The notes beneath the pieces were generated by a model. The model did no database searches. It was not told where the DNA came from and saw only the letters and a program-made list of their open reading frames with translations. Shown here piece by piece: positions 6,934-16,761 of a DNA stretch of 64,000 bases. This DNA is from Candidatus Latescibacterota bacterium (GTDB lineage Bacteria; Latescibacterota; UBA2968), in NCBI GenBank assembly GCA_965204745.1, contig OZ242010.1, positions 4,480,001-4,544,000 on the forward strand, given 5' to 3'. Position 1 is the first letter of the stretch. Every line of letters begins with the position of its first letter. The position numbers were made by a program, and so were the translations under genes.

Positions 6934-8127
6934 ATGCCTACGAATGAGGTGAATGTAGCGGATTTTTTCAACGCGGAATCCCCGACCTGTGGGTTGGAGG
7001 ATGCGATTGCATCTTTGCCGGAAACAGGAGGCGGGGTTCGCATTCCGGCGGGCACTTATCCGTTGCGTAAGACCTTGTACGTGCCTAGCCGCGTGAGCTT
7101 GATCGGCGATGGGCCGGCGACCGCGTTGACGATTTTGCCCTTGCAAGTCGCCCCTTTGGCCCGTGATATTCACAAAGGGGAGCGGGTCTTGACCTGCACG
7201 AGCAAACCGCCTTTTCGCGTGGGCGAAGGCATCGGCGTGTGCGATGACGATCACAGGGGATGGTGGGGCACGCACGGCGAGGTCGAACGCGTTGAAGGCG
7301 TGCGCGTGTGGATGAACGTGCCGTTTGAGCGGGACTTGTCCGCGAGCCGCAATGCGCGGGCCGTGAATCTGTTCCCCGGGATCTGGGCAGAGGGGGAAAC
7401 GGATATCGCAATCCGCGATTTGACCCTCAAAGGCCCGGAAAACTACGAAGGCGCGTGGTGGGATTTTACGTACTCGGCGATGCACATTGTCGCGTGTGAG
7501 CGCGTGCGGATTCTGAATTGTTCGGTCTTTGGCTGGCCGAGCGATGGGTTTGGGATTCAGCGCGGTTGCGATGTACAAGTGGCGCACTGTCAGGCACACG
7601 GATGTCGCGGGCACGGGTTTCATCCCGGCACCGGCTTGGCGCGCAGCATTTGGTCGCACAACATCGGGAAGGGCAATGGGGGCGACGGGTATTACTTCTG
7701 TGCGCGGGTGCATCATTCGGTGTGTAGCGACAGCGTGTTTTCCGAAAACGGGCAACACGGTATCGGCGGGGTCGCCAATGGCGGGGATCACCACAACATC
7801 GCGTCCAACAATGTGTGTTCGCACAACGGCATGTGTGGGATCGACGCAAACAGAGGGGAAGAACAAGTGATGACCGGCAATCTGTTGCTGGGCAATTCGC
7901 GGGCAGAGCCGGGAAAATACCCCGGCATCCGCGTACACGACTTGACCCACTCGATCATCCAAGGCAACCGGTGTGCAGATGATCGGGAACCACAGACGCA
8001 ACAGAAGGGCATTGAAGAAAGCGGCGCGAGCGATTACAACTTGATCAGCGGCAATCTGTGCGCGGGCATGGCGCAGGCCATCGCCATTGTGGGCAGGCAC
8101 AGCCGCGCAGAGGGAAATTTGGTATGA
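6934..8127 (+). CDS. Right-handed parallel beta-helix (pectate-lyase-like) protein
   Basis: GGGVRIPAGTY N-terminal motif and repeated N/G-rich strands (SENGQHGI, SHNGMCGI, ISGNLC). Confidence 0.8.
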   Translation: MPTNEVNVADFFNAESPTCGLEDAIASLPETGGGVRIPAGTYPLRKTLYVPSRVSLIGDGPATALTILPLQVAPLARDIHKGERVLTCTSKPPFRVGEGIGVCDDDHRGWWGTHGEVERVEGVRVWMNVPFERDLSASRNARAVNLFPGIWAEGETDIAIRDLTLKGPENYEGAWWDFTYSAMHIVACERVRILNCSVFGWPSDGFGIQRGCDVQVAHCQAHGCRGHGFHPGTGLARSIWSHNIGKGNGGDGYYFCARVHHSVCSDSVFSENGQHGIGGVANGGDHHNIASNNVCSHNGMCGIDANRGEEQVMTGNLLLGNSRAEPGKYPGIRVHDLTHSIIQGNRCADDREPQTQQKGIEESGASDYNLISGNLCAGMAQAIAIVGRHSRAEGNLV

Positions 8128-9077
8128 TGGATGCCCGTCATATTTCAGATAGAGACATCGCTTCGGTCATGACCGCGCGGGATTTTGTGAACAGTTGCGA
8201 CGAGGCGTTTCGATTCTACGGATCGGGGCAAATGACAAATCCCCCGCGCAAAGAAGAGGTCATGCGCGAGGGAAATTTGGACGTGTTTCGCTTGGTGATG
8301 CCGGGCCGGTGGAAAGGGAAATTTCAGGGGCAAAAGGTCCTCGAAGAGCGTTCCGATGTCAAAACCGGGCGGTTGGGCGAGAGAACAGCGGTGATCGAAT
8401 TGGAAGACGTACGCGGGCAGACGCATGTGGTTGTGGATGCCGAACACATCACCGACATGCGAACGGGCGCGGCAGGCGCGTTGGGCGCGAAATACCTGGC
8501 AAAAACTCCGGTACGCACCGCGGCGATTCTGGGCACGGGCCGCATTGCACGGGCATTGGCGCGGTGTATCGACATAGCACTCGGGCCAAAACTCATGCGG
8601 GTGACGAGCAGAACGCCGGAAAAACGTGCGGCTTATGCAGCAGCGGTCGCGCCGGCTATTCAGTGCGACTTGGACGTGGTTGAAGACATCGAAACCTGTA
8701 TTGATGGCGCAGACGCCATTTTTACCTGCGTGCCAACGCCCGAGCCGATCTTGCGCGATGCCGCAGATCACGTACACATTTCCGTGCTAGGCGGCGATGG
8801 GCGCACCACGCAGTTGCAACCGGGATTGTTAAAGCGGCGAATCGTGGTGGCAGATCACGCAGAGCAAGTGCTTTTGTCCGGCGAATTTCTCGCGTTGCGC
8901 GATCTGGATGAGACGCCCCGATGGGCGAAAAATTCAGCGGGTCAGATCTCGACTATCGGGCATGCGGCATTGGGGCAGTTGGAACATTTGCGCGGGCAGG
9001 GGAGTATCGCGTACTTCAGCGGGCTGGCAATCCAAGATATTCACGCAGCAGCAACCGCGTGGCGAAAACTGCGGTGA
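8124..9077 (+). CDS. Ornithine cyclodeaminase/mu-crystallin family protein
   Basis: ITDMRTGAAGALGAKYLA, ILGTGRIA Rossmann motif, SGLAIQD; ATGA overlap with upstream gene. Confidence 0.88.
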   Translation: MMDARHISDRDIASVMTARDFVNSCDEAFRFYGSGQMTNPPRKEEVMREGNLDVFRLVMPGRWKGKFQGQKVLEERSDVKTGRLGERTAVIELEDVRGQTHVVVDAEHITDMRTGAAGALGAKYLAKTPVRTAAILGTGRIARALARCIDIALGPKLMRVTSRTPEKRAAYAAAVAPAIQCDLDVVEDIETCIDGADAIFTCVPTPEPILRDAADHVHISVLGGDGRTTQLQPGLLKRRIVVADHAEQVLLSGEFLALRDLDETPRWAKNSAGQISTIGHAALGQLEHLRGQGSIAYFSGLAIQDIHAAATAWRKLR

Positions 9078-9103
9078 TCTGTTGAATGTCCAGTTGCAAA
9101 ACC

Positions 9104-9133
9104 AAAAGGCAGGCCCTCGCGCCCGCCTTTTTT
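9104..9133 (+). terminator. Intrinsic terminator
   Basis: AAAAGGCAGGC-cctcgc-GCCCGCCTTTTTT hairpin plus T run downstream of the operon. Confidence 0.6.
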
Positions 9134-9217
9134 ATTGCCAAAAAGCGCGGCGCGGATTATTATTTTCAGGACGATTTGTATAAGACATACCGGAATTTTG
9201 TGGCAGGAGCGTCATCC

Positions 9218-9730
9218 ATGGCCTGGCTTTATCAGCGGGGAAAAAAGTGGTGGATCGGGTATTACGATCAAGATGGCAAGCGCGTTCGCAAATCCATCAG
9301 CGATTCCAAAGAGGCCGCGGAATTGGCTATGAAGCGGATCGAATCGGAATTGGAGCGCGACAATGCCAGAGCACTTGCGATTCCCCAAAGCACGCTCGAC
9401 GCCATTGGCAAACAACTGGGCAATGGCAGTCCGGAGCCGCTTTTGACCTACCCGGCTGTGCGAAATGTCACCAATGTCCGGGAGTTGTTCATTCGGATTT
9501 ACGAAAAGCTGGGGTTTGAGGTGCTCAAGTCTCAAGAGGCATTTCCCCACTACGTCCTCTCGCGCGACGAACTGCCCATCCGAGCGCACGCCGTGTTGCG
9601 AAGCAGTGATTTCCAGCGCGAAAAATTGGATTGCACGACCTGCGACAGCATCATCTGCTGGGTTGACGATTGGGAAGCCTCGCCCATCCCGGTTTTGGAA
9701 TTGTCTGCCCACTACGATCTCTGCGGGTAA
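9218..9730 (+). CDS. Hypothetical protein: integrase arm-type DNA-binding domain plus degenerate PD-(D/E)xK-like domain
   Basis: GGAG RBS; MAWLYQRGKKWWIGYYDQDGKRVRKS resembles tyrosine-integrase N-termini; C-terminus LGFEV..FPH..RSSDF..CDSIICWVDDW..PVLELS. Confidence 0.7.
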   Translation: MAWLYQRGKKWWIGYYDQDGKRVRKSISDSKEAAELAMKRIESELERDNARALAIPQSTLDAIGKQLGNGSPEPLLTYPAVRNVTNVRELFIRIYEKLGFEVLKSQEAFPHYVLSRDELPIRAHAVLRSSDFQREKLDCTTCDSIICWVDDWEASPIPVLELSAHYDLCG

Positions 9731-10497
9731 TCCGCACGTTTTGCCGCCTCCCACAGCGCGTCCATTTCCTCGAGGGTGGCTTCCTCCGGCGTTTTGCCCC
9801 GTTTGCCCAATTCGGTTTCGATGTATCGAAAGCGCGTTTGAAATTTTCTGTTCGTCTGCGCGAGGGCATCTTCCGGGCAGATTTGGAGAAATCGCGCGAG
9901 ATTCACCAACGCGAACAGCAAGTCCCCAAATTCCTCCCGAACCCGATCCTCCGCGCCTGCTGCTCGCGCGTGCATCAACTCCTCTGTTTCCTCCCGCACT
10001 TTTTGAATCACCTCCGCAATGTGATCCCACTCAAATCCCACCCGTGCGGCTTTTCTCTGAAGATGGTACGCCCGCAACAGAGCGGGCAGATGGCGCGGCA
10101 GCCCGTCGAGCAGAGACGGTCGTTTGTCCGGGTTTTCCTCGGCTTTGATGCGTTCCCAGTTTTGGAGGACTTGGTCCGGCGTATCCGCTTCTGCGTCCCC
10201 AAACACATGGGGGTGTCGGCGAACGAGTTTGTCGGCTATGGCGCAGGCCACGTCGTCTATGGTAAAGCGGTTTTCTTCCCGGGCAATTTGCGCGTGAAAG
10301 ACGATTTGCAACAACAAATCGCCCAATTCCTCTACGATTTCGGCGTCGTCATTGCGGTCGATGGCGTCGAGAACCTCATAGACTTCTTCGATCAAATAGG
10401 GCTTCAGGCTCTGCGGGGTTTGCGCTTTGTCCCACGGGCAACCCGAAGGCGATCTCAAACGCGCCATGAGATCGACGAGGCGGTCAAAATTGGACAT
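9712..10497 (-). CDS. mazG: Nucleoside triphosphate pyrophosphohydrolase MazG
   Basis: LRSPSGCPWD, EEVYEV, EELGDLLLQIVFHAQIA, RRHPHVFG, second EEFGDLLF domain. Confidence 0.96.
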   Translation of the reverse strand: MSNFDRLVDLMARLRSPSGCPWDKAQTPQSLKPYLIEEVYEVLDAIDRNDDAEIVEELGDLLLQIVFHAQIAREENRFTIDDVACAIADKLVRRHPHVFGDAEADTPDQVLQNWERIKAEENPDKRPSLLDGLPRHLPALLRAYHLQRKAARVGFEWDHIAEVIQKVREETEELMHARAAGAEDRVREEFGDLLFALVNLARFLQICPEDALAQTNRKFQTRFRYIETELGKRGKTPEEATLEEMDALWEAAKRADYPQRS

Positions 10498-10644: not shown

Positions 10645-11079
10645 ATGAGTGATTCACTGCGCGATATTATGCGGAAAGTGGGCCGCGATGACGTGCGCGA
10701 GCACGAGCGGGAAAAGTGGACGGAGCGGACAGAAGACCTGTTCAGCACCCAAGAGCGGAACGAACCCAAAGACGAGGTCGAAAAGCGGCACGACAAGTAC
10801 CGCAGACAACAGGAATACGCCAGTCGCTTGGGCCCTGCGGCAGAGCGATTGCCCATTTTGAGCAAGGAAGAAACCGAGCGCAGGGCGCGCGAACGGCCCA
10901 AACGCCGAACCTATCAGTTTGAAGGCCCAATCGAAAAATTGCTGGAAAAATACGGCGATCCCAAAGAGGCGTTCAAGCACATGTCCCTGGGGCAGTTGAT
11001 GAAATACGAGTTGGACGAAAAAACAGGGGCGATTTACGAAAAGGGCGAGTTGATTTACGACGGCGAAAAATGGGTTTGA
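10645..11079 (+). CDS. Hypothetical highly charged protein (144 aa)
   Basis: GGAGGAG RBS, host-like codon usage, divergent from mazG; no family recognised. Confidence 0.7.
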   Translation: MSDSLRDIMRKVGRDDVREHEREKWTERTEDLFSTQERNEPKDEVEKRHDKYRRQQEYASRLGPAAERLPILSKEETERRARERPKRRTYQFEGPIEKLLEKYGDPKEAFKHMSLGQLMKYELDEKTGAIYEKGELIYDGEKWV

Positions 11080-11143
11080 GTATCTCCGCGCCACCCTGCC
11101 GCCCAAGTGCGTGCCCGTCCGCGCCGCCCAACCGTGTCTGAAT

Positions 11144-11180
11144 CGCGGATTAAACGGATTACGCGGATTGCGCGGATTAC
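11144..11180. repeat. Nonamer tandem repeat with CGGATT core, 4 units
   Basis: cgcggatta aacggatta cgcggattg cgcggatta. Confidence 0.8.
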
Positions 11181-11246
11181 CCCACACCACCCTACCGCCG
11201 CTTCATCGTTCCCATCCGCTATGTCCTTTGCACGCCCTGTCGCCAT

Positions 11247-11649
11247 AGACCTATCCCCCCGGCCCCCGTTATTCGCTTCGCTCATTGTAGGCTACGCCTG
11301 TGCCTACGAGGAAAGGGGGAGCGCGTGGCTTTCTTAAAGGGTTGCATCCAGGGCTGTTTTGATGGCTTTGGGCGAATGGATCACGCCATGAAAATCCAAA
11401 AACCCTTACACACAATCCCTCGCACAACCTCTCGCCATTCCCCCTTCCTCGCGGGACCTATCCCCCCGGCCCCCTTTCCTACGAGGAAAGGGGGAGCGCA
11501 TGGCTTTTTGAAGGTTTGTATCCAGGGCTGTTTTGATGGCTTTGGGCGAATGGATCACGCCATGAAACCCAAATCCCCCTCGCACAATCCCTCGGAAAAC
11601 CACTCACAGTTCCCCCTTCCTCGCAGGAAGGGGGTTAGGGGGTAGGTCC
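11247..11649. repeat. Cluster of REP-like CCCCTTCCT...AGGAAGGGG palindromes with an internal ~90-bp direct duplication
   Basis: GACCTATCCCCCGGCCCC..CCTACGAGGAAAGGGGG units; 11310-11395 repeated at 11485-11570 and related to the MITE B interior. Confidence 0.85.
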
Positions 11650-11957
11650 AGGGTTTAGGTCACAATTTCCTTGTCAAGAATGACGTAGTACCTTAATTTG
11701 TCTCCACCATCGTTATTTGGCACCCGCAGGCAAAAGCCATGCCTGCACAACTCGTTATATTTTTTAGGAGGTTTTGTATGTTGACTGCCATTTTTCGACG
11801 TTGTTCAAACCTGTTTGGAGGCCACCGTTCCCCTGCGAAAACAGGCGTTCATGTCGCCCATCCCCGTCTTGGAGTGCCGTTCTATTTCATTGCAAAACAA
11901 TCCGTTAAGATGATCAGTACAGTGTACCCCCCCCCCCCCCCCCGAGAGGAGTCTGAT

Positions 11958-14900
11958 ATGATGTCCCGCTACGCTCATTTGTTGGCCCTGGTCGCGCTGG
12001 TTTTGCTGGTGGCATCGGGGCCGGCTTTTGCCCAAACCGACTACGATACGGACAACGACAACCTGATTGACATCACCTCCTTGGCGCAACTGAATGCCAT
12101 TCGCTATGACCTCAACGGCGATGGGGCCGTAGCCAATACGGATACCATGAACTACAACGCCGCCTTTCCCAACGCCATGTCGAGCATGGGTTGCGCCGCT
12201 ACCTGCACCGGCTACGAACTGATGAGCAACTTAGACTTCGACACGAACGGTGACGATACCATCACTGTCGCCGACGACTACCCCAACTGGGATCCCAATC
12301 GTCAACCCCGGCAACGACAACAGCGGCTACACCGCCATCTTTGAAGGCAACGGTCACACCATCTCCCACCTGACCATTACCGACCGGAACAGCCGGGACG
12401 TAGGGCTGTTCGATGAGCTGGAGCCCACCGGCATTATCCGCAATGTAGGGATCATCGACGCCAATATCCGAAGCGGCGGCGCGTCCGACGGATACGCCCC
12501 CCTGGTAGGCTACAACGCACGCGGCACCATAATCGCCAGCTACGCCCGGGGCGGCTCGGTCACCGCCACCATGCAAAACTCCAGCATCGGCGGACTGACC
12601 GGCCGCAATTCAGGCGTCATCCTGGCCAGCTACTCCACCGTCACGGTCATCGGCGGCGGCCATACCAGGGTCAACGCCGGCGGGCTGACCGGCACCCTGG
12701 AATCCTTCCCCAACACCGGCCGGATCACCGCCAGCTATGCCACCGGCGCGGTGTCCGCCACCGGCTATAACGCCGTCCGCGGCGGTTTGGTGGGAAGTTC
12801 CTCCAGCAACGCCAGCGTAATTGCCAGCAGCTATTGCACCTCCGGGGGCTGTATCGGCTCCAACGTCGGCGGCAGCCTTGACGCCACCACCCAAACCGCC
12901 ACCGCTTTGCAAACCCCCACCGCCTACACCGGCATCTACGCCAACTATAACATCGACCTGAACGGTGATCGCGTCCCCGACAATCCGTGGAACTTCGGCA
13001 CATCCAGCCAGTACCCGACCCTGAAAACCCCCACCCAGCGCGCCGTTGTCATTGACTACGACAACGACAACGACGGTCTGATTGACGTGACTTCCCTGTC
13101 GCAGTTGAACGCCATCCGCTACGACTTGAACGGCGATGGCCTGCCCATCGGCACCAACGCCGACACCATCGCCTATGCCGGTGCCTTTCCCGGCGGCGAC
13201 ATAACCGCCAGTAGTGGCCGGATGGGTTGTCCGTCCACCGGTTGCACCGGCTACGAACTCCTCGCAAGCCTTGATTTCGACAGCGACGGCGACGGCGATG
13301 TGGACGCCAATGACCACGGCGGCGCTTACTGGAACAGCGGCGCTGGCTGGCAACCCATTGGCCCTAGATCCCTCACCCCATACGCAGGCAATTTCAAAGG
13401 CAACGGATACACCATCAACAACCTGTTCATCGACCGCAACGCCAACGATAACCAAAGTCTGTTTGGCGTTGTTGCCTCCAATCGCATAGAAACCCTGGGC
13501 GTAACCAACGCCAATGTTAGCGGAAATGCCTATACCGGCATTCTGGCAGGTATCAATAACACGACAATTGTCGCTTGCTACACCACCGGCAAGGCACAAG
13601 GTAGCGGTAATAACACTGGCGGATTAGTTGGCTATTCCACCGGGACTATCTCCGCTAGCTACTCCACTACATACGTCAGCGGAAACAACAACGTCGGCGG
13701 CCTGGTGGGTTACATGCAGAGCGGTACGATAACAAGCTCCTACTCAACCGGCAGAGTCACCCGGGCTAGCGGATCGGCAACAACCATTGGCGGGTTAATA
13801 GGAAATCTGAACACCGGCACCGTGTCCATCAACTACTGGGACACCTCAACCAGCGGACAGGCCACAAGCGCAGGCGGTAGCGGCGTTGTTGGCAAGACCA
13901 CCAGCGAGCTCCAGAGCCAGACCACCTACGGTGCCACCACCAACGACCCCTACTACAACTGGAACGCCAACCTCGACGGACAAGCCGGCAACGACGATCC
14001 GTGGACCTTTGGCAAGACGGATCAGTATCCGGTCTTGAAGTATGCCGGCATGGATACCACCGTGCAGTATAACTCGCAACCGCCGGGCAAGCCGGATGTG
14101 GCAGTGACGTCCAATGGGGACACTTTGTACGTGCGCTGGACAGCGTCGAGTTATGCGACGGGGTACAAAGTGCAGTGGAAATCCGGCATGCAAAGCTACG
14201 ACGCCTCACGTCAGGCCACCACCACGGCTACGTTCCTCAAGATTCCCTTGACCACGGGGACGACCTACACAGTGCGTGTCCTTGCCACCAAGACCGGTGC
14301 GAGCGATGCACCCTCGGACGAGGTCATGCGCGCTCCAGGCCTCACCAATTACGATACCGATGGCGATGGCCTCATCGCTATCACCACGCTAGCTCAGCTC
14401 AACGCCATTCGCCACGACCTAAACGGCAATGGCGACGCTACCCACGCCGATTATGACGCTGCCTTTCCCGGCCGCGACACCAGCAGCAGTGCCCGCATGG
14501 GCTGCCTCTCGGGATGCACCGGCTACGAACTGCTCAACGACCTGGACTTTGACGAGAACAACGACGGCGCAATCACCTCAGCAGACGCCACCTACTGGAA
14601 CAGCGGCACGGGCTGGGAGCCCATCGGAACCGACGCCGACACAGACGCTCCATACACAAGCCAATACCACGCAGGTTTCAAAGGCAACGGCTACACCATC
14701 AACAACCTATACATCAGCCGCCCCAGCACTAACGACGTCGGGCTGTTCGGCGCAATTTCCTCCCCCGGCCGCATCGAGACCTTGGGCGTAATCAACGCCG
14801 ACGTTACGGCGCAGTATTGGGTCGGCATTCTGGCAGGCACCATTCGCGGCGACGGCGATATTGTCGCCAGTTACACCACCGGCGAGGTTGCCGGCAACCA

Positions 14901-16761
14901 AAATGTTGGTGGATTAGTCGGCTACATGTTAGAAACAGGACCAGGAATCCACTCCAGCTACTCTACCGCATCCGTCAGCGGCAATCTGAACGTCGGCGGT
15001 CTATTGGGCCGCCAGGACAGCGGCGGCTCTATAACAAACTCATACTCCACCGGCAGGATTAGCGGCACCGGAAGCTCTCCCGTCCAAATCGGCGGACTAT
15101 TAGGCCTCGGTAACCTGGGAAGCGTCGTGTCCAACAGCTACTGGGACACCTCCACCAGCGGGACTACCTCTAGCGAAGGCGGCACGGGCAAGACGACCCG
15201 CGAGCTCCTAAGCCCCACCACCTACGGTGCCACCAGTAGCGATCCCTACTATAACTGGAACGCCAACCTCGACGGACAAGCCGGCAACGACGATCCGTGG
15301 ACCTTTGGCGCGATGGATCAGTATCCGGTCTTGAAGTATGCCGGCATGGACACCACCGTGCAATTTCAGCTTCAACCCGCGATAGTGACGTTGGCACTGA
15401 CGCCCTCGTCGATCTCGGAAAGCGGCGGGATGAGTACCGTGACCGCGACGCTGACACGGTCGTGGAGCTCGGCGACGACGATCACGGTGCGTCCTGTGGC
15501 GGGTGCTTACACGGTGGCGGCGGATTCGACGATCACCATCGCGGCCGGGAGCACGGCGAACGCGTCGGACACGGTGGTCATCACAGCGGTGGACAATACC
15601 CAAGACGCGCCTAATCGCGACGTGACCGTGTCCGTTGTATCAGCCAACGCCCAGGGCAGTGTGGTCCTCCCGACTGCAATAACGATCACCGATGATGACG
15701 CGCCGCCGAGGCTCTCGATCAGTTCGCCGAGTGCGGTTGAGGGCACTGCCCTGACGTTCACCGTTAGATTGCATGCGGCGAGCGGCAAGGCGGTGACGGT
15801 GGCGTATGCAGACGCGGGCACGGGCACCGCGACTTCGGGGACGGACTACACCGCGCTTACCGCAGGGACCCTGACCTTCGCGGCGGGCACGACCACGACC
15901 AGCCAGACCATCGCTGTTTCTGTGAGCGACGACGGGGATGATGAGCCGAACGAGACCGTGATCGTGACGCTGAGCAGTGCGACCAATGCGACCATAAGCA
16001 CGGCGCAAGGCACCGGTACGATTATCGATGACGATGGCATGCCTGCGCTGAGTATCAGTTCGCCAAGCGTGATTGAAGGCGCGACCAGCGCGACCCTGAC
16101 CTTTCAGGTGTACCTACGCCCAGCGCACGACATGTTACAAGTGACGGTGGCGTATGCAGACGCGGGCACGGGCACCGCGACTTCGGGGACAGACTACACC
16201 GCGCTTACCGCAGGGACCCTGACCTTCGCGGCGAGCGATACCATCCAGACCATCCCTGTTTCTGTGACCGACGACTCGGATGATGAGCAGAACGAGACCG
16301 TGATCGTGACGCTGAGCAATGCGACCAATGCGACCATAAGCACGGCGCAAGGCACAGGAACGATTATCGATGACGAAACCCCGAGTGCCAACTTGGATGT
16401 GGATGGCGATGGCCGGGTGAGATTGTTCTCGGATATAATCCTGGTCATCCGATATGTCCTCTTCTTCCGGGAAGAGGCCCTCCTCAGAGGGAACGTCATC
16501 GAGCCAACTGCCACGCGCACGACCGCTCAAGAAATTGAACCCTACCTCGACACGTTGGTCAATCAGAACATTCTCGATGTGGATGGCGATGGCGATGTGA
16601 GGCTGTTCTCGGATATAATCCTGATCATTCGATATGTCCTCTTCTTCCGGAACGAGGCCCTCCTCAGAGGGAACGTCATCGAGCAACAGGCTACGCGCAC
16701 GACCGCTCAAGAAATTGAACCCTTCATCCGAAGCCTCTATCCCGCCTCCCACTTCCAATGA
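11958..16761 (+). pseudogene. Large secreted surface protein (GLUG-like repeats, FN3, two Calx-beta, C-terminal tandem domain), frameshifted near 12290
   Basis: Signal peptide MMSRY..PAFA/Q in one frame to 12344, 1500-aa continuation in another; DYDxDxDGLIxITSLxQLNAIRYDLNG repeated three times, VGGLVG repeats, TATSGTDY..GTLTF..EPNET Calx-beta motifs. Confidence 0.75.

Follow-up and report, generated by a model that had tools for sequence, protein, structure and literature searches.

Within the window, a stretch of 64,000 nucleotides (nt) from the genome of a Candidatus Latescibacterota bacterium (contig OZ242010.1, positions 4,480,001 to 4,544,000), the gene at 9218..9730 (+) encodes a protein of 170 amino acids (aa), here named ArmNuc (N-terminus MAWLYQRG; the coordinates include the stop codon), in which an integrase arm-type DNA-binding module is joined to a nuclease-fold domain that lacks its acidic catalytic residues. 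With a probability of about 0.6, ArmNuc is a DNA-binding protein without catalytic activity that recognizes specific sequences and regulates, at the least, its own transcription. This reading builds on the homologies of the two domains, on the absence of the acidic residues, on the evidence for purifying selection and vertical descent, and on the architecture of boxes and palindrome upstream of the gene. An original prediction, made from the sequence of the window alone, had described a domesticated two-module DNA-binding protein; its two folds and the acidic loss were borne out, its option of a regulator gained support, and its option of a recombination inhibitor or decoy found none. All genomes compared are metagenome-assembled genomes (MAGs) of uncultured bacteria.

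The Nuclease-Fold Domain and Its Lost Catalytic Residues

A profile search of 1.84 billion representative proteins with the ArmNuc family profile returned 1007 proteins at E ≤ 0.001, nearly all of them matched over residues 83-168 only, and the motif of this family is E...FPD...ExE...HxHD...CDxIxCW. The family named in the original prediction does exist; beside these library matches, an open reading frame (ORF) at 754-1617 of locus L030 carries NENGV..FPDC..IEFEYES..CDVIVCW, a pattern of the kind that had been given there. In an alignment of 70 intact members (A2), every sequence has the P, the D and the leading E of ExE, and at least 90% conservation was seen for the helix E, the other E of ExE, the HxH, the C-D and the C-W. 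Comparison by hhalign of A2 with an alignment of 38 full-length ArmNuc members (A1; seven fragments or partial forms, P0036 and P0040-P0045, were excluded) gave a probability of 99.9% (E 3.4e-36, 85 columns), and residues 81-165 of ArmNuc are, on this sequence comparison, true homologs of the intact E-PD-ExE family.

The aligned columns reveal what has become of the catalytic positions. The helix E of the intact family corresponds to V84 in ArmNuc (V, A, P, T or S across members), the D of FPD to H111 (H or N), the first E of ExE to H124 (H in all members), the second E to V126 (V, L, A or H), and the HxH to E135 and L137; only P110, C142-D143 and C147-W148 were kept. The former catalytic positions 84 and 126 drift within the ArmNuc family and H124 is fixed, being invariant along with E89, D131, C142 and C147. 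The acidic metal-binding residues required of PD-(D/E)xK proteins, namely the helix E, the strand-2 D and the strand-3 (D/E)x(K/E), are absent from all 38 members, and the replacements that had been noticed in the single sequence are therefore family-wide; no ArmNuc ortholog among these retains the catalytic residues.

A first structure model, built from 38 close homologs, was too weak over the C-terminal domain (mean predicted local distance difference test, pLDDT, 62.5), and with it Foldseek gave nothing and the VIA structure search covered residues 1-54 only. The second model, for which a deeper alignment of 150 sequences (A4) was the input, has pLDDT 94-98 over residues 81-160 and orders them as helix 84-94, strands 101-105, 112-116 and 119-128, helix 129-134, and strands 144-149 and 159-161, such that the alpha-beta-beta-beta-alpha-beta topology of the PD-(D/E)xK core is present. 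With this model, 19 of the 50 VIA rows lie wholly inside residues 70-170, and 12 of the 19 are titled nucleases, resolvases or restriction enzymes. The best is NucS (2vld; Z 5.8, root-mean-square deviation [rmsd] 3.2, 82 aa), followed by AF1548 (1y88; Z 5.6), SPO1766 (Z 5.3) and the FdxN-element excision-controlling factor (2okf; Z 5.2, rmsd 3.0, 80 aa); the others include LlaBIII, FokI, VRR_NUC, Can1, a splicing endonuclease, BstEII, I-Ssp6803I, Hjc, SdaI, AspBHI, Cdn1 and SfsA. These C-terminal matches are presumably all PD-(D/E)xK-fold proteins, and the modeled topology and its nuclease neighbors agree with the restriction-like nuclease fold that had been proposed. By sequence, no solved structure was found with the ArmNuc profile (best E 0.52) or the intact-family profile (best E 0.42), and the protein atlas gave only a 0.75-score lead from ArmNuc to PDDEXK_5 and unnamed clusters for an intact member.

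Intact Relatives and Short Dead Paralogs

The intact members join the core to varied DNA-binding parts: HNH_repeat, the homing-endonuclease-associated repeat, as in the member of locus L030; helix-turn-helix (HTH) or winged-HTH domains; Trans_reg_C; a ribbon-helix-helix (RHH)-like, Omega-repressor-like part; and the replication initiator RPA. The nuclease-like core itself is covered by no Pfam, NCBIfam, PHROGs or PADLOC model; when intact members were scanned against the last three libraries, only their accessory HTH domains were matched. Among the 150 best library matches, none fuses an arm-type module to an intact core, and no demonstration of the activity of any intact member was found. The intact family occurs in 14 viral-contig loci of IMG/VR; tblastn of intact members against public collections gave no match among phage records and a single weak one, to a plasmid of a haloarchaeon. 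From its sequence, ArmNuc appears to descend from such modular nucleases, built of a core and interchangeable DNA-binding domains, and to have become a fixed part of the host gene set.

Other uncultured bacteria contain a broader group of short 'dead' relatives with the same replacements and a shorter, hairpin-like N-terminus; palindromes of different sequence lie upstream in three of the four loci examined (L076, L078 and L082), an anecdotal count. In the genome of the window, the A2 profile recovered the ArmNuc gene (E 1.3e-26) and no intact paralog that could act as a catalytic partner, and a heterodimer with an intact paralog was ruled out.

Two metagenomic proteins of 515-516 aa (P0046 and P0050) carry a degenerate and an intact copy of the core in tandem in one chain, which suggests that the core normally works as a dimer. 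Two other genomes of the same phylum (G071 and G116) encode intact members (L031, 3555-4442; L032, 3-575) with a weak C-terminal match to EVE (E 0.014), a putative fusion that hints at a restriction-like enzyme reading modified bases; the gene of L031 lies between apparent fragments of transposase genes, as judged by eye from the ORFs.

The N-Terminal Arm-Type Module

The N-terminus was originally likened to the arm-type DNA-binding part of integrases, and three kinds of evidence agree with this. Pfam Arm-DNA-bind_4 (PF14657) matches residues 13-46 of ArmNuc (E 5.6e-4, 19.9 bits; the cut-off is 22.3 bits) and 13 of the 38 members at E ≤ 0.01, with a best value of 6.7e-5. The ArmNuc family profile in turn picks out the N-terminal 45-60 residues of 357-411-aa ORFs from other genomes in the phylum and, in the library of representatives, P0187 (E 2.1e-8), a true integrase with Phage_int_SAM_5 and Phage_integrase domains. 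Finally, the model from the deep alignment predicts strands 3-7, 10-16 and 22-28 and a helix at 31-52 (pLDDT ~90), the three-stranded antiparallel sheet packed against one helix that characterizes an arm domain. NCBIfam and PHROGs scans of ArmNuc gave nothing but weak matches to this part. As had also been noted, no recombinase core follows: the chain ends at residue 170 and Pfam recognizes no integrase domain in it.

The VIA search placed the module near the arm domain of HPI integrase (3jtz; Z 4.2, rmsd 1.6, 46 aa, 24% identity), the arm domain, or DNA-binding domain (DBD), of lambda Int (2wcc; Z 4.7) and an AP2 domain of Plasmodium (6sy0; Z 4.5, rmsd 2.2), matches that are tied with unrelated small sheets such as pieces of PH domains, and the fold search alone is not diagnostic. 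The linker at residues 53-80 is modeled as a short helix (57-66) followed by disorder, with pLDDT < 50 at residues 67-77.

Distribution, Inheritance and Selection

Homologs of ArmNuc were retrieved by a word-indexed search; of 118 candidates, 44 protein clusters passed E ≤ 0.001, with identities of 53-95% and lengths nearly always of 167-172 aa. In the phylum, 38 of 168 genomes showed some match: 27 (that of the window included) carry the complete gene, 2 more have it interrupted by contig ends, and the 9 others hold unrelated proteins matched through a single domain only. By genus, it was found in 19 of the 20 other genomes of its own genus and in g3 (3/3), g4 (1/1, a fragment), g8 (1/1), g11 (2/2) and g13 (2/2), three families being spanned in all. 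The one genome of its own genus without ArmNuc also lacks mazG, and the region was therefore probably left unassembled there. The species representatives of GTDB provided 24 loci, all labeled Latescibacterota or Latescibacteria except one labeled Gemmatimonas; ArmNuc is confined to genomes of the Latescibacterota.

The gene is present as a single copy in the genome of the window. The ratio of nonsynonymous to synonymous substitution rates (dN/dS; Nei-Gojobori) within the genus is 0.09 (133 pairs with dS 0.05-2), comprising 0.07 for residues 1-50, 0.21 for residues 51-80 and 0.07 for residues 81-170, values that rule out a pseudogene or chance ORF. Pairwise distances of ArmNuc and MazG are closely correlated (Pearson 0.96, Spearman 0.91; rate ratio 1.0), with the 276 pairs not being independent. 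ArmNuc is thus a vertically inherited, constrained host gene, not the strain-specific, decaying chimera that had been named as the outcome adverse to the prediction.

Boxes and a Palindrome Upstream of ArmNuc in Relatives

A recurring TTTGTGGCTAATAGCCACA was observed in the 190 nt upstream of the gene when 22 loci were aligned. The genus comprises 20 other genomes, and in 16 of them the palindrome TGTGGC-N5-GCCACA occurs exactly once per genome and, by comparison with gene coordinates, always 133-154 nt upstream of the ArmNuc start; a reversed control pattern occurs 0-2 times per genome in the genus and 0-3 times across the order. A survey of 53 genomes of the order, 27 bearing the gene and 26 without it, located the palindrome beside ArmNuc in 21 of the former, with A+T-rich spacers, and one stray palindrome with a G+C-rich spacer in each of five of the latter. 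Genome G063 has two palindromes elsewhere and a one-mismatch variant at its ArmNuc gene.

Three to five TGTGG(C/A) boxes, one of which forms part of the palindrome, lie within 230 nt upstream in 23 of 24 loci; TGTGG was counted 99 times in 5,520 nt of upstream sequence versus 728 times in the remaining 272,593 nt of the loci, a 6.7-fold enrichment. The box consensus is (T/A)TTGTGGC(T/C)A. Four deep lineages, with flanks too diverged to be aligned, share one arrangement. The first box sits in the promoter spacer, 31 nt ahead of the palindrome, or immediately follows the -10 element; the palindrome, whose half-sites are 12 nt apart, comes next; and a further box stands 29-49 nt upstream of the ATG, in some cases with another on the ribosome-binding site. 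Palindrome and boxes overlap the promoter spacer, the transcript start and the region preceding the ribosome-binding site.

The 5-bp core of the palindrome is invariant and the sixth pair differs without compensation in three loci (L053, L054 and L056); with no Rfam family at gathering score and a fold z of -1.5 relative to shuffled sequences, a reading of the 5' region as RNA was ruled out, and the palindrome is consistent with a site in DNA and not with a hairpin in RNA. Autoregulated genes for DNA-binding proteins are typically recognized by such a gene-specific palindrome over the transcript start. The repeated or palindromic site expected in the promoter of an autoregulated factor is present in the relatives, one box being left in the window, and this conserved architecture adds to the support for the regulator proposed in the original prediction.

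A mechanism can be proposed in which ArmNuc would bind the boxes and repress transcription. Its N-terminal arm-type/AP2-like sheet would read TGTGG(C/A), and its dead C-terminal domain would serve as the scaffold through which subunits are joined as dimers, possibly adding contacts to DNA; two or more arm modules would then sit on the palindrome and flanking boxes.

Points Weighing Against Self-Regulation

A number of observations weigh against this reading. In the genome of the window (G000) and in its closest kin, G091 and G082, with ArmNuc proteins 92-93% identical, a deletion of ~110 nt has removed the palindrome or half of it, and with it most of the boxes have been lost; the gene is still constrained in these three genomes (dN/dS 0.10-0.15), and the differences among their proteins fall in the linker and one loop. 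Because the gene stays constrained after loss of the operator, self-regulation cannot be the whole function of ArmNuc. No second target was found: the intergenic region between mazG and the next gene holds no consistent box, and typical genomes show no overall enrichment of the 10-nt box (1-20 copies versus 3-30 for controls). A factor other than ArmNuc could occupy the boxes, of which we infer ArmNuc to be the binder.

The evidence from structure is also qualified. VIA scores for the C-terminal domain are middling, and since none reaches 8, the similarity of the model to solved PD-(D/E)xK structures is graded as suggestive. Foldseek gave no match at E ≤ 0.001; its best was Bax1 (6p4w; E 7.4e-3), and its weak matches also included EcoT38I, a CdiA-CT toxin, I-Ssp6803I, AF1548, several Hjc resolvases and EcoRV. 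Moreover, a non-canonical active site or metal site may exist in ArmNuc, given that H124 never varies and that position 111 is occupied by H or N throughout.

A Dispersed Repeat and Alternative Functions

In G000, the pattern TGTG[GC]C-N3-TGTG[GC]C gave 238 hits in 128 arrays versus 4-20 for scrambled controls. These are parts of a mosaic repeat found mostly between genes, with 47 of 104 copies inside long open frames that cover 83% of the genome. The repeat is built of 9-bp TTTTGTGCC units, and its last unit, TTTTGTGGCTAA, is the promoter box. The 16-mer TTGTGCCTTTTGTGGC was counted 104 times in G000, 87 in G091, 11 in G082 and 9 in G087, and 0-4 times in the rest of the genus; the 10-mer TTTGTGGCTA was counted 146, 101 and 60 times in G000, G091 and G082, respectively, and 1-20 times in each of the other 50 genomes of the order, G087 being in that range (control counts, 3-30 per genome). 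The expansion, strong only in G000 and G091 and lesser in G082, involves the same clade that has lost the promoter palindrome.

This coincidence is one argument for the alternative that survives best, a possible though doubtful one, in which ArmNuc would be an architectural or repeat-binding protein with its main job at many chromosomal box sites, be it nucleoid organization, silencing or the handling of a dispersed repeat family, and in which the boxes at its promoter would only set its level. That the last unit of so abundant a repeat is the promoter box, that the 10-mer has expanded in exactly the clade without the palindrome, and that ArmNuc stays constrained there all favor it. However, by the 16-mer counts the repeat and the gene are not co-distributed: 13 of 15 genomes of genus g10, which lacks ArmNuc, hold 1-18 copies, and most gene-bearing genomes hold 0-4. 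Furthermore, the coincidence of expansion and operator loss is a weak argument for causation because a single clade amounts to one evolutionary event.

A bolder proposal, which must be regarded as unlikely, takes ArmNuc for the domesticated, non-cutting remnant of a mobile nuclease that still recognizes its old signal, TTGTGGCTA, and acts as a host factor driving, guiding or titrated by the spread of the repeat. The signal is the terminal unit of the mosaic intergenic repeat, and in the operator-deleted clade box-bearing repeats have gone from < 20 to 60-146 copies per genome. If true, an integrase arm module and a dead nuclease fold would here be the basis of a partnership of the REP/RAYT kind. 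The loss of the operator together with the expansion of box repeats in the clade of the window provides a natural experiment on the interplay between such a factor and a dispersed repeat.

Copies of the repeat occur within the window at ~22143 (-) and ~32304 (+), and the repeat is flanked by modules such as GAACTGGCTGTCGCCAGTTGTACCCC and CCATCTCACCTCTC. In a g10 genome without ArmNuc (G059:C1:3051760-3055273), the 16-mer is repeated every ~186 nt along two runs that look like a satellite-like tandem array of the repeat.

It is distinctly unlikely that ArmNuc is still an enzyme, with a site rebuilt from H111/H124 and E89, D131 or D143 and targeted to the boxes by the arm module. The invariance of E89, H124, D131, C142 and C147, the restriction of position 111 to H or N and a dN/dS for the C-terminal domain (0.07) like that of the DNA-binding module are consistent with such a site; on the other hand, the four canonical carboxylates and the HxH are gone, positions 84 and 126 vary freely, and a nuclease targeting its own chromosomal promoter would be self-damaging.

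The two remaining alternatives survive less well still. A role as recombination accessory, whether directionality factor, inhibitor or decoy, at the arm-type sites of an integrase encoded elsewhere would accord with an N-terminal module of the kind that reads such sites and with the FdxN-element excision-controlling factor as a structural neighbor of the C-terminal domain, but it is very improbable: the boxes cluster at the promoter of ArmNuc itself and not at a mobile element, the gene lies in a syntenic block (beta-helix protein, cyclodeaminase-like gene, ArmNuc and mazG) that is stable across three families, genomes without it have both flanking genes directly abutting, and no integrase, att-like context or mobile element was recognized beside it among the genes in flanks of 1.5-6 kb, with no dedicated search having been made. 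The inhibitor or decoy originally suggested thus found no support, and the accompanying statement that no prophage surrounds the gene holds within the conserved flanks of ~6 kb, the extent examined.

A functional partnership with MazG, for example the coupling of antisense or convergent transcription through the overlap of the two genes, is highly unlikely despite their close linkage. The mazG gene is convergent and adjacent to ArmNuc in 29 of 29 loci of one set, in 23 of 24 loci of another (the 24th stops at a contig end) and in 5 of 6 orthologous metagenome loci. Yet the spacing ranges from an overlap of 19 nt to ~670 nt, synteny likewise extends to the surrounding genes (that for the beta-helix protein, the cyclodeaminase-like gene and a small conserved gene beyond mazG), and the short distant paralogs have no mazG within their flanks, for which reasons the linkage reads as inherited synteny with repeated loss of ArmNuc. 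Where ArmNuc is lacking, mazG is kept, and the cyclodeaminase-like gene and mazG are directly convergent, 25 nt apart. The overlap with mazG is accordingly not a demonstrable functional link.

Relation to Known Systems

Proteins that bind DNA by means of a reused dead nuclease scaffold are already known. A limited literature search found no description of an arm-type module joined to a dead nuclease fold of this family, and this pairing is not in Pfam, NCBIfam, PHROGs or PADLOC. The closest precedent is WhiA, which is described as a transcription factor on a degenerate LAGLIDADG homing-endonuclease scaffold with an HTH (PMC3240954, PMC3781837, PMC11701221, PMC3384342). WhiA likewise combines a dead nuclease scaffold with a separate DNA-reading module and is fixed as a chromosomal DNA-binding regulator; it differs in that LAGLIDADG and HTH are unrelated in fold to the PD-(D/E)xK-type domain and arm/AP2-like sheet of ArmNuc, and in that WhiA is widespread in Gram-positive bacteria and experimentally studied, whereas ArmNuc is known from the sequences of Latescibacterota MAGs only. 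Among bacterial DNA-binding proteins derived from dead mobile nucleases, ArmNuc would be a second, structurally unrelated case beside WhiA.

AP2/ERF transcription factors were reportedly thought by Magnani et al. in 2004 to derive from AP2-HNH homing endonucleases. AP2-type modules are the targeting parts of HNH homing endonucleases (PMC5714182). AP2-HNH homing endonucleases and the AP2/ERF and ApiAP2 transcription factors presumably derived from them resemble ArmNuc in that a three-stranded module which targets a mobile nuclease later survives in transcription factors; in those proteins, however, the HNH (His-Me finger) nuclease was lost entirely, whereas ArmNuc keeps a dead but constrained domain of another fold.

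Inactive homologs within the PD-(D/E)XK superfold include the nuclease-like domain of RecC, RPB5 and the HTH-fused COG1395/Replic_Relax predicted regulators, and there too activity was lost and the fold kept as a structural or nucleic-acid-binding unit (PMC3424549). No sequence relation of these to ArmNuc was found, and none is known to be joined to an arm-type module. The unnamed E-PD-ExE/CDxIxCW family shares with ArmNuc a homologous core and the design of a core with interchangeable DNA-binding parts, but keeps the acidic residues and has some copies in viral or mobile contexts. The analysis exposes this large nuclease-like family, of ~1000 clusters at 50% identity, which lies outside the four family libraries searched. 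ArmNuc itself belongs to a phylum without cultured members, and the palindrome, present only once in most genomes, gives a precise prediction of the DNA site that it would bind.

Organization of the Locus

The features of the locus are listed in Table 1. A longer in-frame ORF begins at an upstream ATG at 9086; 9218 was nevertheless taken as the start codon because the same Met is common to all 38 aligned homologs, each of which begins with MAW. The terminator-like hairpin closes the upstream cyclodeaminase-like gene (8121..9077; Pfam OCD_Mu_crystall, 1.4e-33), and the stop codon of ArmNuc (9728-9730) lies within the 19 nt by which its gene overlaps the 3' end of the convergent mazG. The original description of the locus, with its own ribosome-binding site, a preceding terminator and this overlap, was correct.

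Table 1. Coordinates, in the window, of the ArmNuc gene, its parts and the adjoining features.
Feature	Position	Strand	Evidence or remark
Terminator-like hairpin with run of six U	~9104..9133	+	Folding free energy (dG) -16.5 kcal/mol, z -2.9
Promoter-like TTGCCA-17-TATTAT, sigma-70-like	9135..9163	+	Same -35/-10 elements align in relatives
TGTGGC box, sole one left upstream of ArmNuc in the genome of the window	9199..9204	+	-19 from ATG; abuts ribosome-binding site
Ribosome-binding site AGGAG	9205..9209	+	8 nt before ATG; read from sequence
ArmNuc gene	9218..9730	+	ORF, 44 homolog clusters, single copy, dN/dS 0.09
Putative arm-type/AP2-like DNA-binding module, residues 1-52	9218..9373	+	Pfam PF14657 below cut-off, profile matches, model
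Variable linker, residues 53-80	9374..9457	+	Lowest conservation, dN/dS 0.21, low pLDDT
Predicted nuclease-fold domain without acidic catalytic residues, residues 81-170	9458..9727	+	hhalign 99.9%, column table, model
mazG, convergent neighbor of ArmNuc	9712..10497	-	Pfam MazG 3.3e-40

Beyond mazG, a small conserved gene (10679-11079, +) is divergent from it; its product starts MSDSLRDIMRKVGRDD and has a GEKWV-like end, and the gene is kept beside mazG in nearly all relatives, also in genomes without ArmNuc. The ORF that lies antisense to it (10654..11190, -) is probably spurious. Between the small gene and the next gene, two tandem non-coding copies (11248-11647; spacing 172-175 nt, 78-91% identical) probably represent another member of the intergenic repeat families of this genome. 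Further downstream, a very long ORF of 1503 aa occupies 12250-16761 (+), and DxDxDG motifs of a dockerin/calcium-binding-like kind occur in the ORF immediately preceding it (11739-12344).

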